From NCBI RefSeq assembly GCF_988243305.1, contig NZ_OZ547136.1: a DNA stretch of 64,000 nucleotides; one strand, 5' to 3'. This document shows, piece by piece, positions 21,760 to 47,741 of the stretch. Made by a program: the position numbers and the translations under genes. The stretch's first letter is position 1, and each line of letters starts with the position of its first letter. The notes beneath the pieces are model-generated. The model did no database searches. It was given only the letters and a program-made list of their open reading frames with translations, and was not told where the DNA came from.

Positions 21760-24700
21760 ATGAGCAAACAATCACAGCATGTATTAATTGCCCTGCCCCA
21801 CCCGCTGCTTCACCTGGTCAGTTTAGGTTTAGTCTCGTTTATCTTTACCCTTTTCTCGCTTGAGCTTTCGCAGTTTGGCACCCAACTCGCCCCACTGTGG
21901 TTCCCGACGTCCATCATGATGGTGGCGTTTTATCGCCATGCCGGGCGTATGTGGCCGGGGATTGCGCTGAGCTGCTCACTGGGAAATATCGCCGCATCCA
22001 TCCTGCTTTTTTCCACCAGCTCGCTGAACATGACCTGGACGACCATCAATATTGTTGAAGCCGTGGTCGGGGCAGTGCTACTGCGTAAATTGCTGCCGTG
22101 GTATAACCCATTGCAAAATCTGGCTGACTGGCTGCGTCTGGCACTCGGCAGCGCCATTGTTCCGCCTCTGTTGGGGGGTGTTCTGGTTATCCTGCTGACG
22201 CCCGGAGACGATCCTCTCAGGGCATTTTTGATATGGGTACTGTCAGAATCCATCGGCGCACTGGCACTGGTGCCACTGGGATTGTTATTTAAACCACACT
22301 ATCTGCTGCGCCATCGCAACCCAAGGTTGCTTTTTGAGTCGCTGCTCACGTTAGCCATCACACTGACGTTAAGCTGGCTTTCGATGCTGTATCTGCCGTG
22401 GCCTTTTACTTTCATTATTGTGCTGTTGATGTGGAGCGCCGTGCGCCTGCCACGAATGGAAGCCTTTTTGATCTTCCTTACCACGGTGATGATGGTGTCA
22501 CTGATGATGGCCGCGGATCCCTCCCTGCTTGCTACGCCGCGTACATACCTGATGAGCCATATGCCGTGGCTACCGTTTTTGCTGATCCTGCTGCCCGCCA
22601 ACATCATGACCATGGTGATGTATGCCTTTCGTGCGGAACGCAAACACATTTCCGAAAGCGAAACCCGCTTTCGGAACGCGATGGAATATTCCGCTATCGG
22701 TATGGCGTTAGTGGGCACCGAGGGACAATGGCTGCAATCCAACAAAGCACTCTGCCAGTTTCTCGGTTACAGTCAGGAAGAGCTGCGCGGACTCACCTTT
22801 CAGCAACTGACCTGGCCGGAGGATCTCAATAAAGATCTGCAACAGGTTGAAAAGCTGATCAGCGGTGAAATAAACACCTATTCAATGGAAAAACGCTACT
22901 ACAACCGCAATGGCGATGTTGTCTGGGCGTTGCTTGCCGTCTCACTGGTGCGCCACACGGATGGCACGCCGCTCTATTTTATCGCTCAGATTGAAGACAT
23001 TAACGAGCTAAAACGCACCGAACAGGTGAATCAGCAACTGATGGAGCGCATCACGCTGGCTAACGAAGCGGGCGGGATTGGCATCTGGGAGTGGGAGCTT
23101 AAGCCGAATATTTTTAGCTGGGATAAGCGGATGTTCGAGCTGTATGAAATTCCTCCGCATATCAAACCGAACTGGCAGGTGTGGTACGAGTGCGTGCTGC
23201 CGGAAGATCGCCAGCATGCCGAAAAAGTGATTCGTGATTCGTTGCAATCACGCTCTCCCTTTAAACTGGAATTTCGCATTACCGTGAAAGACGGCATTCG
23301 CCATATCCGCGCCCTCGCTAACCGGGTACTGAATAAAGAAGGCGAAGTCGAACGCCTGCTCGGCATTAATATGGATATGACCGAGGTAAAACAGCTTAAC
23401 GAGGCATTGTTTCAGGAAAAAGAGCGCCTGCACATTACGCTGGATTCCATCGGCGAAGCCGTGGTCTGTATTGATATGGCAATGAAAATTACCTTTATGA
23501 ATCCGGTGGCGGAGAAGATGAGCGGCTGGACGCAGGAAGAAGCGTTAGGTGTTCCACTCCTGACGGTGTTGCATATTACTTTTGGCGACAACGGACCATT
23601 AATGGAGAACATTTACAGTGCCGACACCTCACGTTCCGCGATTGAACAAGATGTGGTGTTGCACTGCCGAAGCGGCGGCAGCTACGACGTGCATTACAGT
23701 ATTACGCCGTTAAGTACTCTGGACGGCAGCAATATTGGTTCGGTTCTGGTGATTCAGGACGTCACCGAATCGCGCAAAATGCTGCGCCAGCTGAGCTACA
23801 GCGCCTCCCATGATGCACTGACGCATCTCGCCAATCGCGCCAGTTTTGAGAAGCAACTACGCATCCTGCTGCAAACGGTAAACAGTACACATCAGCGACA
23901 TGCACTGGTGTTTATCGATCTTGATCGCTTTAAAGCGGTGAATGACAGCGCCGGGCACGCCGCTGGCGACGCTTTACTGCGCGAACTGGCGTCATTGATG
24001 CTGAGTATGCTGCGCTCCAGCGACGTGCTGGCGCGACTCGGTGGCGATGAATTTGGTCTGCTGCTGCCAGATTGTAATGTCGAAAGTGCGCGTTTTATCG
24101 CTACACGCATTATCAGCGCCGTGAATGACTATCACTTTATCTGGGAAGGACGTGTACATCGGGTAGGTGCCAGTGCCGGGATTACCTTGATTGATGACAA
24201 CAATCATCAGGCGGCTGAAGTGATGTCGCAGGCTGATATCGCCTGTTATGCCTCCAAAAATGGTGGCCGGGGCCGGGTGACGATTTACGAACCGCAGCAA
24301 GCTGCCGCACATAGCGAACGGGCGGCGATGTCGCTTGATGAACAGTGGCGGATGATTAAAGAGAATCAGTTGATGATGATCGCCCACGGTGTCGCTTCGC
24401 CGCGGATCCCGCAAGCGCGTAATTTGTGGCTGATTTCACTTAAGCTCTGGAGTTGCGAAGGCGAGATTATTGATGAACAAACATTTCGTCGTAGCTTCAG
24501 CGATCCGGCACTTAGCCATGCTCTTGACCGACGGGTATTCCACGATTTTTTCCAGCAGGCCGCCAAAGCGGTTGCCAGTAAAGGTATAAGCATCGCCCTC
24601 CCGCTTTCCGTTGCCGGTTTGAGTAGCGCCACGCTGGTGAATGAACTAATTGAGCAGCTGGAAAATAGCCCTCTACCACCACGGTTATTACATCTGATTA

Positions 24701-30143: not shown

Positions 30144-30905
30144 TCATTCTGTCCACAGCGCCAGTGCCAACGTTTTATCATCATCCGTACGCTCGTTTAC
30201 CGCCGGGCTGGACAAAAACTGCTTTAACAATTCAGGTAATAAATCGAGTTGTTCCTGCGTTGCTGACGCCAGTCCATTGAAAAACGGGGTAAAAAAAGGC
30301 ACATGCGGAGAATTATTCAACATATTTAACGCCAGCCTCTGAATACCATCCGTAAATGCTGCAACTTTATGCGCACGCTCAGTACTGGTGTAAGTTTCCA
30401 GTCTGGAAACAGCATCGTCATCGGTAATGAAGTGCGTCATGTTGGCATATTCACCCACCATCGGCGTGAGAGGCAATTGCAGACCGTGACCCAAATCTAC
30501 CACCATGCCGCCATCGCCAATCTGCATAATCAAGGTGCCGTCAGGCGATGAAATCAGTCCCAGAAATGTACAGGCAAAATCGCGAACCGCTAATTCTTTG
30601 GCCTCTGCCTCGGCAAAAAGTCGCTGACGAATGGTCAGCACAATATCCGTGGCGAGGACATCATTAAGCCCCAATTCCCCACCCTGCACTTTTTGCGACA
30701 TATAAGCCATCGCTTCATTGACGGCGAGCATCGCGCCTTCGCCACCCTGCGAGACGCTGCCTGCGCCATCAGCGACAAATACCGACAATAATGGCTGCTG
30801 GTCATTTAACCAGGCAACCTGCATCTGGCAGGCATCCTGGCAAGGCAAGTCCGCGCTGATGTGCGACGTTCCAACGGTTGATGCATAGACCAGACGCCAG
30901 CTCAC
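30144..30905 (-). CDS. yegK: PP2C-family Ser/Thr protein phosphatase
   Basis: 253 aa with PP2C-like metal-binding motifs VADGAGS and FTDGIQ; start overlaps the yegL stop. Confidence 0.88.
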
Positions 30906-44418: not shown

Positions 44419-45780
44419 ATGTTTAAACCGGAACTCCTTTCCCCGGCGGGAACGCTGAAAAATATGCGTTACGCTTTCGCTTATGGCGCAGATGCTGTTT
44501 ATGCGGGCCAGCCGCGTTACTCCCTGCGTGTGCGCAACAACGAATTTAACCACGAAAATCTTCAGCTCGGCATCAATGAAGCCCACGCGCTGGGGAAAAA
44601 GTTTTATGTCGTGGTCAACATTGCACCGCACAACGCCAAGCTGAAAACCTTTATCCGTGACCTGAAACCGGTGGTGGAAATGGGGCCGGATGCGCTGATT
44701 ATGTCCGATCCGGGGCTGATTATGCTGGTGCGCGAGCACTTCCCTGAAATGCCGATCCATCTCTCAGTACAGGCTAACGCCGTGAACTGGGCGACGGTGA
44801 AATTCTGGCAGCAAATGGGTCTGACCCGCGTGATCCTCTCTCGCGAACTGTCACTGGAAGAGATTGAAGAGATCCGCAATCAGGTGCCAGATATGGAGAT
44901 CGAAATCTTCGTTCACGGCGCGCTGTGCATGGCCTACTCCGGTCGCTGCCTGCTCTCTGGCTATATCAACAAGCGCGACCCGAACCAGGGCACCTGCACC
45001 AACGCCTGCCGCTGGGAGTACAACGTCCAGGAAGGGAAAGAAGATGACGTTGGCAACATCGTGCACAAGTACGAGCCGATTCCGGTGCAAAATGTTGAGC
45101 CGACGCTGGGTATCGGCGCACCAACTGACAAAGTGTTTATGATCGAAGAAGCCCAGCGTCCGGGCGAGTATATGACCGCGTTTGAAGATGAGCACGGCAC
45201 TTACATCATGAACTCGAAAGATCTGCGCGCTATCGCCCACGTTGAACGCCTGACCAAAATGGGCGTGCATTCGCTGAAAATCGAAGGCCGTACTAAATCT
45301 TTCTACTATTGCGCACGCACCGCACAGGTTTACCGTAAAGCTATCGATGACGCCGCTGCGGGCAAACCGTTCGATACCAGCCTGCTGGAAACTCTGGAAG
45401 GTCTGGCGCATCGTGGCTATACCGAAGGTTTCCTGCGTCGTCATACTCACGACGATTATCAGAACTACGAATACGGTTATTCAGTTTCTGACCGCCAGCA
45501 GTTTGTTGGTGAGTTTACCGGTGAGCGCAAGGGCGACCTCGCGGCGGTAGCGGTGAAAAATAAATTCTCCGTTGGCGACAGCCTTGAGCTGATGACGCCG
45601 CAAGGGAACATTAACTTTACCCTTGAGCAGATGGAAAACGCCAAAGGCGAAGCAATGCCGGTCGCACCGGGCGATGGTTATACTGTGTGGATCCCGGTCC
45701 CGCAGGATCTTGAGCTAAATTACGCGCTGCTGATGCGTAATTTCTCCGGGGAAACCACGCGTAACCCACACGGTAAGTGA
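44419..45780 (+). CDS. yegQ: U32-family peptidase-like protein (tRNA hydroxylation, TrhP)
   Basis: 453-aa ORF MFKPELLSPAGTLKNMRYAFAYGADAVYAGQPRYSLR... with conserved Cys cluster. Confidence 0.9.
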   Translation: MFKPELLSPAGTLKNMRYAFAYGADAVYAGQPRYSLRVRNNEFNHENLQLGINEAHALGKKFYVVVNIAPHNAKLKTFIRDLKPVVEMGPDALIMSDPGLIMLVREHFPEMPIHLSVQANAVNWATVKFWQQMGLTRVILSRELSLEEIEEIRNQVPDMEIEIFVHGALCMAYSGRCLLSGYINKRDPNQGTCTNACRWEYNVQEGKEDDVGNIVHKYEPIPVQNVEPTLGIGAPTDKVFMIEEAQRPGEYMTAFEDEHGTYIMNSKDLRAIAHVERLTKMGVHSLKIEGRTKSFYYCARTAQVYRKAIDDAAAGKPFDTSLLETLEGLAHRGYTEGFLRRHTHDDYQNYEYGYSVSDRQQFVGEFTGERKGDLAAVAVKNKFSVGDSLELMTPQGNINFTLEQMENAKGEAMPVAPGDGYTVWIPVPQDLELNYALLMRNFSGETTRNPHGK

Positions 45781-45812
45781 TTAATTTCGATTATTTTTCC
45801 CGGATGGAAAAT

Positions 45813-45834
45813 TCTTAGAAACCGATCACATACA
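45813..45834 (+). promoter_or_regulatory. Candidate CRP site (class II position) for cyaR
   Basis: tcttagaaaccgatcacataca with a perfect TCACA right half, centred about 41.5 nt upstream of the inferred CyaR 5' end. Confidence 0.45.
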
Positions 45835-45864
45835 GCTGCATTTATTAAGGTTATCATCCGTTTC

Positions 45865-45951
45865 GCTGAAAAACATAACCCATAAAATGCTAGCTGTACC
45901 AGGAACCACCTCCTTAGCCTGTGTAATCTCCCTTACACGGGCTTATTTTTT
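45865..45951 (+). ncRNA. cyaR: CyaR (RyeE) Hfq-dependent sRNA
   Basis: gctgaaaaacataacccataaaatgctagctgtaccaggaaccacctccttagcctgtgtaatctcccttacacgggcttatttttt matches my recollection of CyaR, including the terminal hairpin and U-tract. Confidence 0.85.
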
Positions 45952-46109
45952 ATGCATAGGCCCTATCCCTGGTCACCGTCTTCCATTGACCACATCGATA
46001 GAATCTCCCTTCATAGCACGATGCCTTTCACGTAACGGCATCGTGCTCGCACTAGTTCCGGCTAAGCACAACCAGAACGCGCATGTTTGACGCTTACCAA
46101 AAAATATTC

Positions 46110-46427
46110 TCACTCTCCACATTTGAATGTCAGACGAGCGACGCCATGTAATCCTGCACCTTCTGTCTTCAGGTCAACTATCTGCATTTTTTTGCCCTGA
46201 GTAACACAGAAATGAGCTGCATCATTTTTTACTATATTTTCTGCACCAGATATTCTGCCCCTGGCTAAAGAAGCTTCGGCTTCGGTGTAGTATTGGTTAT
46301 CGAGTTTACGCTGAATATTACTTTTATATGCAAGACCAAATTTACCGATACTTGTCTCATCATTATGTACAGCACACCCAGACATAAGAAAAACACTAAT
46401 TAATGATATAGCAGCTATCTTTTTCAT
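46110..46427 (-). CDS. yegR: Small lipoprotein of unknown function
   Basis: Track ORF is 125 aa; trimmed to MKKIAAISLISVFLMSGCAVHND... (105 aa) with signal peptide and lipobox LMSGC. Confidence 0.85.
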   Translation of the reverse strand: MKKIAAISLISVFLMSGCAVHNDETSIGKFGLAYKSNIQRKLDNQYYTEAEASLARGRISGAENIVKNDAAHFCVTQGKKMQIVDLKTEGAGLHGVARLTFKCGE

Positions 46428-46841
46428 CTTACCTTCCCCCATTAAATACCAACGACACGCTCTGGTGTTAAAATATAATAATGGCATGATTATTATAATT
46501 GAATAGGATTATAATAAATGTTCTGTACAACATTTCCTACATAAGTAGGAATTACAAACATGAAGCCCTGCCCAGGTATCCCCATGAGGGCTTTAATATA
46601 TTTAGAATAAGATAGTGAAGATGCCACTGTTTAGTTGAATATTAGGTATATGCTCTTTTTTGAAATTTACCGGTGGCTACCGTTAACATTCACTGTCCCC
46701 ATTGCAAGCTCCTGGTGGTAACCACTGAATCCTCCATACTTGAACTGACTTTTTATCCTCCGACTTTCATCCTGTTCTGACTCCACCTTTTCTTTTCTGC
46801 TCTACACTATCTACAGACCAATCATAAAGGCACATACGATC

Positions 46842-47741
46842 ATGGCAGAATTTCCCGCCAGCTTACTGATTCTTAATGGCAAAAGTACTGACAATTTACC
46901 ATTGCGCGAAGCAATTATGCTGTTGCGTGAGGAAGGAATGACGATCCATGTGCGGGTCACCTGGGAGAAAGGCGATGCCGCACGATATGTAGAGGAGGCC
47001 CGGAAGTTGGGCGTCGCAACGGTGATTGCCGGTGGTGGCGATGGCACCATTAATGAAGTTTCTACGGCGTTGATTCAGTGTGAGGGGGATGACATACCCG
47101 CGCTGGGAATTTTGCCATTAGGAACCGCCAATGATTTTGCCACCAGTGTAGGGATTCCTGAGGCACTGGATAAGGCGCTGAAACTGGCAATTGCCGGTAA
47201 CGCCATTGCGATAGATATGGCGCAGGTCAACAAACAAACCTGTTTTATTAATATGGCGACAGGCGGGTTTGGGACGCGTATTACCACAGAAACGCCGGAA
47301 AAATTAAAAGCCGCGCTGGGTGGCGTCTCTTACATCATTCATGGCTTAATGCGCATGGACACTCTGCAACCGGACCGTTGTGAGATCCGCGGTGAAAACT
47401 TTCACTGGCAAGGTGACGCCCTGGTCATTGGTATTGGTAACGGGCGTCAGGCCGGTGGCGGTCAACAATTGTGCCCGAACGCGTTAATTAACGATGGCTT
47501 GCTGCAACTGCGCATTTTTACCGGCGATGAAATTCTTCCGGCTCTCGTATCAACCTTAAAATCTGACGAAGATAACCCGAATATTATCGAAGGCGCTTCG
47601 TCGTGGTTTGATATACAAGCCCCACACGAAATCACTTTTAATCTTGATGGCGAACCGTTGAGCGGACAAAACTTTCATATTGAAATACTTCCGGCGGCGT
47701 TGCGTTGTCGATTACCACCGGATTGTCCATTATTGCGTTAA
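46842..47741 (+). CDS. yegS: Lipid kinase, diacylglycerol-kinase catalytic domain family
   Basis: 299-aa [35 protein letters not shown]... with GGDGT motif. Confidence 0.92.

Follow-up and report, generated by a model that had tools for sequence, protein, structure and literature searches.

The small RNA gene cyaR (RyeE) lies between yegQ (trhP) and yegR in the window analyzed here, a 64,000-nucleotide stretch of contig NZ_OZ547136.1, and yegS follows beyond yegR (Table 1). Rfam model RF00112 places CyaR at 45863-45948 on the plus strand (100.7 bits, E = 1e-19, gathering score 47, full length, 1-85), and the RNA ends in an intrinsic terminator with its stem at 45916-45943 and its T tract at 45944-45951, the sole canonical terminator called by a terminator scan of 45700-46900. 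From the end of this terminator to the stop codon of yegR (46110-46112, minus strand) there are, as a first-pass annotation of this DNA had stated, 158 bp (45952-46109, hereafter the gap), in which a promoter scan returned no convincing promoter. The gap does contain the perfect 11-bp inverted repeat at 46015-46047 that the annotation had described. Its statement that E. coli K-12 has a P2 remnant between cyaR and yegR was also correct, this remnant consisting of ogrK and a truncated D gene, and the window indeed has no ogrK/D' remnant between the two genes. From these features the annotation had proposed an unoccupied phage attachment site next to the 3' end of the sRNA gene, to be located by comparison with prophage-bearing strains. 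That comparison places an attachment core at the CyaR 3' end, identical to the core of P2 attP at 27 of 27 positions: the proposal holds for an unoccupied site at the end of the sRNA gene, but not for a site inside the gap or its hairpin, the core being at 45925-45951, just left of the 45952-46109 interval.

Table 1. Features between yegQ and yegS, in window positions.
Feature	Position	Strand	Basis or comparison
yegQ/trhP	44419-45780	+	Local map
cyaR (RyeE) sRNA gene, including intrinsic terminator	45863-45951	+	Rfam RF00112
P2 attB (locI) core AATCTCCCTTACACGGGCTTATTTTTT, unoccupied, as judged by sequence	45925-45951	+	27/27 to P2 attP core
Post-core spacer	45952-45973	+	Colinear with post-core and IHF region of P2-type attL
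Putative P-arm Int-binding site relic CTGGTCACCGTCTTCCATTGACCACATCGA	45974-46003	+	Compared with P2 CTGGTCACGTCCACACATTGACCACATCGA
Second copy of first 10 nt of core AATCTCCCTT	46002-46011	+	Direct repeat; significance doubtful
Perfect 11-bp inverted repeat, 11-nt loop	46015-46047		Between P-arm relic and 186-like block
Block like cos-proximal right end of phage 186 (Peduoviridae)	46048-46105	+	76% over 58 nt
yegR, 105-aa lipoprotein, PF27694	46110-46427	-	ORF and annotation
AT-rich yegR upstream region, right part of insert	46428-46727		GC 0.33-0.40
Putative degenerate second att core copy AATCCTCCATACTTGAACTGACTTTTT	46728-46754	+	18/27, right end of insert
Ancestral cyaR-yegS spacer (yegS promoter region)	46755-46841	+	Colinear with the 86-87 bp after the terminator in L125/L127
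yegS	46842-47741	+	Local map

The P2 attachment core in the CyaR terminator

In P2 the attP core is annotated at 24356-24382 (AF063097), and its reverse complement agrees with window positions 45925-45951 without a single mismatch. In the CyaR terminator this segment takes in the loop, the T tract and the 3' arm of the stem; the window has one copy of the 27-mer (AATCTCCCTTACACGGGCTTATTTTTT), where chance predicts zero. In lysogens (compared at loci L003, L006 and L007) the core is duplicated at both junctions, with int beside yegR and ogr beside cyaR: Eco_23-3511 and EC21 harbor a complete P2-like prophage whose int adjoins yegR, and in elppa10 ogr and D adjoin cyaR. Where a prophage splits the BLAST match, the two halves overlap by query positions 226-252, which is exactly the 27-mer core. 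In K-12 (locus L001) the same site between cyaR and yegR holds a 630-bp ogr-D' stub, the left junction of which runs from cyaR through the full core into P2-like DNA that is 96-98% identical to P2-family phages, and the right junction of which retains a truncated core. The deletion that truncated the K-12 remnant ends within this right core copy (L001, 2364-2385) and has left 18 nt of it; the T run of the copy has 7 T versus 6.

Judged by its sequence, the segment at 45925-45951 is the attB of P2 and its close relatives in the unoccupied state. The site at the cyaR 3' end is the classical P2 site locI, the preferred integration site of P2 in E. coli C and the one that is filled in K-12 by the cryptic ogr-D' remnant. 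The comparison of locI with the window core brings out no difference: the 27-bp core is the same (27/27 to attP), the position between yegQ-cyaR and yegR is the same, and the occupied states in other strains match, as full P2-like prophages and as the K-12 stub. P2 integrase, together with IHF, recombines this core with the identical core of attP, and CyaR stays intact after integration because the phage supplies an identical core copy.

That the P2 attB lies at the CyaR 3' end, that it is empty in many strains and that K-12 carries an ogr-D' stub is already established: "cyaR RNA" is listed as a P2 insertion site, occupied by Wphi2 in strain W, by ogr-D' in K-12 and by P2*B in strain B, and empty in Crooks (PMC3032704, Table 2), and ryeE is a known phage target (PMC3603311). 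Across 5,426 complete E. coli genomes, a 121-bp query over the core and its right flank was contiguous in 4,206 (77.5%), that is, the site is empty in about 78%, and an 801-bp query that allows inserts of up to about 0.9 kb was contiguous in 4,562. The K-12-type ogr-D' stub is present in about 356 genomes (7%), many of which are K-12 derivatives, and a larger insert occupies the cyaR site in about 860 (16%). Because the short, prophage-free interval is the common state in E. coli and K-12 belongs to the minority, the absence of the remnant from the window, which the first-pass annotation had singled out, is ordinary and of little importance as stated, although the interpretation as an attachment site still stands.

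A 776-bp insert and its phage-like blocks

A CyaR-pattern scan of species-representative genomes returned 120 cyaR loci, and in most of these, from Pectobacterium to Klebsiella, yegS starts 74-150 bp past the CyaR terminator; none of these 120 loci of other species-level representatives contained a yegR homologue or islet DNA. In two other Escherichia lineages, yegS likewise follows directly after cyaR, at 87 bp (L125) and 86 bp (L127), and their yegS genes have 85-87% DNA identity to that of the window, a level equal to that of E. albertii. When the window was aligned with these two loci by MAFFT, homology broke off after the CyaR stem at 45951, resumed at 46728-46755, and was clear from 46755 onward through to yegS. 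Positions 45952-46727 are thereby delimited as a 776-bp insert comprising the gap, yegR and the yegR upstream region, and the GC content of this islet goes down to 0.33-0.42 versus 0.50-0.57 in the flanking yegQ and yegS.

What appears to be a second core copy, oriented like the left one, lies at the right end of the insert. With 18 of 27 positions identical, a score that the T run inflates somewhat, it came out on top of 1,844 positions in a scan of both strands of 45952-46900 (next best, 15/27); MAFFT aligned AATCCTCCATACTTGAACTGACTTTTT to the CyaR terminator halves of the yegR-less loci L125 and L127, and it stands 87 bp from yegS, as second copies elsewhere do. The insert therefore seems to be bounded by direct repeats of the core, a statement we make with moderate confidence since the right copy is degenerate. 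Within the islet there is no phage gene or pseudogene, and a tblastn search with P2 Int recovered no Int remnant (best E value, 0.45). Distant blastn searches detected no phage similarity in 46428-46727 bar one record that includes host flank. We also considered a relic of the P'/Cox side of P2 at the right end of the islet, where an alignment runs near the same diagonal, but its Smith-Waterman score of 18 is not significant (shuffles, 16.2 +/- 2.1; 115 of 500 reach it), and the candidate was set aside.

The left part of the insert resembles P2-family DNA in two blocks. In a multiple alignment, the window sequence stays colinear with 12 attL arms of the P2 family all the way from the core through the P arm, and the putative P-arm relic shares with the P arms of those 12 sequences both its orientation and the side of the core on which it lies. 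Its counterpart in P2, CTGGTCACGTCCACACATTGACCACATCGA, is the annotated P-arm Int site plus two flanking bases (P arm, AF063097 24293-24320), and the two align with a Smith-Waterman score of 38, reached by none of 500 shuffles (15.4 +/- 2.2). The relic keeps one intact arm-type repeat, GACCACA; its 15-mer CATTGACCACATCGA is an exact match found nowhere else in the 64-kb window, and a 17-mer ending in TA is common to the window relic and Citrobacter prophages. The spacer that separates relic and core is hypervariable (13 of its 22 sites vary among 35 E. coli alleles), and relative to a "long" E. coli allele, found at loci L005, L139 and L181, the window allele has a 12-bp deletion in its equivalent of the IHF region. 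This long-allele sequence (ATGCATAAACCATAGAGACGGATTGATCCCAGGTGACCGTCTTCCATTGACCACATCGATAG), 12 bp longer than that of the window, aligns with P2 GGATTTATTTCTGG; in long alleles the spacing is still P2-like, and 42-43 of 68 alignment columns agree with P2.

The second block, adjoining the stop codon of yegR, matches positions 30517-30574 of phage 186 with a Smith-Waterman score of 46 (shuffles, 14.8 +/- 2.4). In 186 the matching region lies between cos on one side and the t95b terminator and orf97 on the other, at a distance of 50-108 nt from the right cos end, and among 50,697 phage records it is the sole match that does not include host flank. The block is on the strand expected for a prophage with ogr towards cyaR, and yegR has the relative position and strand that orf97 has in 186. 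The similarity is short, at 58 nt, and its database-wide E value is only 0.04.

Two further features of the gap deserve mention. The segment at 46002-46011 repeats the first 10 nt of the core, and the possibility of a third att copy was considered; strains differ here, some having AATCCTCCTT or AATCCCCCTT in its place, and the segment reaches 15/27 to the core overall, which makes this assignment doubtful. In addition, a substantial minority of the E. coli alleles examined, including that of Nissle 1917, have an extra AT-rich 170 bp at 46105/46106 (L002, 907-1076; also L005, L152, L165, L177, L182 and L190). This segment sits 4 nt downstream of the yegR stop codon and has a 41-aa ORF on the yegR strand (beginning MHIFILSVMGYSSTPLLNVSNNDKQ).

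We consider it likely that the locus combines an empty P2 attB with the left end of an older P2-type prophage remnant that includes yegR. The gap, which had been read as a plain unoccupied site, would then be the left arm of an older, fixed P2-family remnant, and this is the reading to which we give good, if incomplete, confidence. We found no account of a P2-type ancestry of the locI flank in the literature covered.

Readings of the hairpin and of the gap

If one mismatch is allowed, the arms of the hairpin (AGCACGATGCC at 46015-46025 and GGCATCGTGCT at 46037-46047) lengthen to 14 bp around a 5-nt loop. A repeat of this kind arose in 5 of 20,000 shuffles of the gap, and there are four in the whole 64-kb window. 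For the hairpin as RNA, the predicted folding energies are -19.3 kcal/mol (plus strand, z = -5.8) and -20.9 kcal/mol (minus strand, z = -3.6). It lies exactly between the end of the P-arm relic at 46003 and the start of the 186-like block at 46048.

The most serious alternative for this hairpin is that it is a working RNA element of the minus strand, either the terminator of the yegR mRNA or a stem-loop that protects its 3' end, and that it keeps convergent antisense transcription from reaching cyaR as well. Past the yegR stop codon it is the first strong stem-loop to be met, 62 nt off; its minus-strand fold is stable in a gap that as a whole folds at -56 kcal/mol (z = -5.4), and every E. coli allele examined has it, those checked retaining 9 or more intact stem pairs. 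However, the minus strand has no U tract after the stem (AUGAAGGGAGAUUC); a T/U tract is in fact missing on either strand, as would not be expected of an intrinsic terminator, and the terminator scan did not call the hairpin. A permissive-threshold Rfam search of 45940-46800 returned chance-level matches only, and no family for the hairpin. In 82 E. coli sequences, which represent 35 distinct alleles, variation affects 5 of the 22 stem sites, a proportion like that of the gap overall (26%), as well as 4 of the 11 loop sites, and the natural changes in the stem are all disruptive, none of them being compensated. Because it lacks a U tract, shows no compensatory changes and varies like its surroundings, we read the hairpin as a relic and regard a working element as possible but unlikely; situated in the yegR 3' untranslated region, it would have at most a weak role as a 3'-end stem-loop.

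As to what the relic derives from, all aligned P2-family attL arms have a GC-rich terminator hairpin, with A/T-run flanks, only a few bases past the P arm. In P2 this is the ogr/F-operon terminator (AF063097, 24265-24288), which shares with the window a GC-rich hairpin a few nt beyond the P arm, away from the core. Unlike the P2 terminator, the window hairpin has no A/T tracts and no similarity to it in sequence; its stem (11 bp) and loop (11 nt) are both longer, and its distance from the P arm is 11 nt where that of the P2 terminator is about 5 nt. No sequence similarity between the hairpin and phage terminators was found. A correspondence with the conserved cos-flanking block of P2, 186 and fiAA91-ss was also tried and rejected: agreement by eye is about 12/38, which is chance level, and blastn gave no match. 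By position alone, the hairpin is most likely a leftover of the old P2-type element.

For the gap and yegR together, the alternative is that they are ancestral host DNA, that lineages without yegR lost the segment by deletion between two short repeats, and that the P-arm likeness reflects either chance or host flank captured by imprecise excision of a P2 ancestor. The islet's lack of any phage gene, the chromosomal location of YegR homologues elsewhere and a right repeat of only 18/27 would all agree with such a history. The P arm, however, is conserved in P2-family prophages of Citrobacter, Buttiauxella and Trabulsiella, hosts that do not have the flank, and transfer from phage to host is therefore the more parsimonious direction. 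Further against host ancestry, direct adjacency of cyaR and yegS is the majority state from Pectobacterium to Klebsiella, the similarity to phage 186 is independent of the P arm and has the predicted orientation, and E. albertii presents the same architecture with demonstrable phage parts. We consider an ancestral origin of the segment improbable, and retain the older P2-family remnant as the preferred reading.

Slightly less probable still is that the hairpin or gap forms part of a functional attachment site, with Int, IHF or Cox binding there. The relic beside the core is the part of the gap that could encourage this idea: it has one intact GACCACA and is invariant in the 35 alleles, where a 27-nt run over it (45979-46005) is identical in 35/35 and would arise with p of about 0.006 under random placement of variable sites, in a test that ignores linkage between sites. 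In contrast, attP has nothing that corresponds to the hairpin, which begins 64 nt away from the core, and nothing was seen that would mark it as belonging to the attachment site. P2 integrates also at secondary sites, and these, as is generally known, share core similarity only; P2-family prophages use the cyaR core in genera without the flank; and the spacer from core to relic is the most variable part of the gap, differing by 12 bp in length between strains.

The invariant run nevertheless suggests that something at the relic may still be under constraint, which the pure-fossil reading does not predict. Because of this invariance, it is conceivable that 45974-46003 still serves as an arm-type site for P2-family integrases and that locI is a "complex" attB, a speculative extension to which we assign little weight. 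If the relic were active, the attR of a lysogen would consist of a P' arm plus a P-like arm, a pseudo-attP, and the efficiency or direction of integration and excision could be biased at the cyaR site; such activity could help explain the site preference of P2 as well as the invariance of the relic amid variable surroundings.

That the hairpin is instead a dispersed repeat (REP/BIME-like, a MITE end or a transposon footprint) or the operator of a host regulator is very improbable: it is a long near-perfect palindrome in the window strain, with 14-bp arms and one mismatch, but the queries of 801 bp (containing the whole hairpin) and 121 bp, which span the locus rather than the hairpin by itself, match a median of one place per genome, it has no Rfam match, the gap matches only phage records that include host flank, and in K-12 the extended arms are lost and 11 bp remain.

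Proposed history of the islet, and related systems

YegR (PF27694) belongs to a family that is almost confined to E. coli and Shigella, and its few distant homologues (44-66% identity) occur in IS-flanked or ordinary chromosomal contexts. Searches of the phage collection, PHROGs and IMG/VR revealed no phage carrying yegR, only E. coli prophage calls with host flank. In phage records and IMG/VR, yegR is found at contig edges only, where prophage borders overrun attR; records that extend past attR into yegR are ON470606.1, AY639599.1 and 80 IMG/VR contigs (L135-L214). The gene's own PHROG family, phrog_21109, probably has the same border-overrun origin. Thus yegR is labelled a phage gene because prophage predictions overrun attR, and for annotation this means that prophage predictors, which routinely do so, mislabel it. 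From the position of yegR in the islet, we infer that the gene is surviving cargo of the fossil element.

The history that we propose for the older P2-type remnant would begin with the integration of a P2-family prophage at the same core in the E. coli lineage. This prophage would then have lost its late genes and its early genes with int, and its remnant would have become fixed as the 776-bp islet at 45952-46727. Read from left to right, the islet would represent the post-core spacer, the P-arm relic, the hairpin, the 186-like block, yegR, the AT-rich stretch and the decayed core, with yegR in the cargo slot that is taken by tin/old in P2, by cdt-V in fiAA91-ss and by orf97 in 186. New P2-type phages now use the left core copy, which would be kept intact by selection on CyaR termination. 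Such a sequence of events is of modest evolutionary interest in that a single attachment site in an RNA gene would be used repeatedly, with selection on the sRNA terminator protecting its functional core copy from the decay that the displaced copy undergoes.

Enlarged cyaR-yegS intervals also occur elsewhere, and these have a second copy of the genome's own core 77-93 bp from yegS, matching at 25/27 positions in E. albertii, 21/27 in Enterobacter sichuanensis, 18/27 in Pluralibacter and 16-17/27 at other loci. The cyaR attachment site seems to accumulate small islets in many genera. Intervals of 0.6-4.8 kb were observed at loci L059, L042, L084, L022, L026/L057/L068, L021, L081 and L039, and some of the enlarged intervals in Enterobacteriaceae have a degenerate second core about 80 bp from yegS. 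Other neighbors of cyaR were noted as well: in Citrobacter species it is a convergent gene with its own terminator, and in Salmonella STM2137 comes after cyaR (PMC2515195). A 9.7-kb contig labelled "MAG: Collinsella sp." (L121, JAIJJM010000051.1) has an E. coli-type cyaR followed by the end of a P2 prophage, with ogr 98.6% identical, and is almost certainly a case of bin contamination.

The closest parallel is in E. albertii NBRC 107761 (L009, 4957-8330), where the cyaR-yegS interval is a 3.4-kb P2-like remnant with cdtABC. At its left, the core is followed by P2-like post-core sequence and a partial P-arm stub; next come about 600 bp, beginning within cosR, with 72% identity to the right end of the cdt-V phage fiAA91-ss, and then cdtABC, which is 90% identical to cdt-V. 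At the right end of the islet, 75 bp share 91% identity with P2 over the core and the flank on the Cox side. In fiAA91-ss itself (KC618326), cdt-V lies between gene A and cosR, the slot of tin/old in P2. The cdtABC islet occupies the same cyaR-yegS site as the E. coli islet and has the same order of core, P-side stub, cos-proximal sequence, cargo and second core, the last standing 87 bp from yegS. The E. albertii remnant is the younger of the two, with a second core of 25/27, a P'/Cox stub 91% identical to P2 and most of cosR kept, and its cargo is known from intact phages, whereas yegR is without a known carrier phage and the right arm of its islet is unrecognisable. The E. albertii islet is thus a younger and well-preserved example of the architecture proposed for E. 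coli. By analogy with cdtABC, which came to this site in E. albertii as phage cargo, the uncharacterised lipoprotein gene yegR, specific to E. coli, may have arrived in the same way.

Temperate phages integrate in the 3' ends of tRNA, tmRNA and sRNA genes (ssrA, for example, or ryeB in Salmonella), bringing a replacement 3' end with them. Read as a decayed prophage with a retained cargo gene at a re-used attachment site in an RNA gene, the islet would be an instance of a familiar kind: it shares with other integrations of this type that the core overlies the terminator half of an RNA gene, that the gene is rebuilt upon integration, and that the displaced copy at the far junction can decay. Unlike the usual case, two generations of elements appear to be nested at the cyaR site, and the older right copy has decayed to 18/27.
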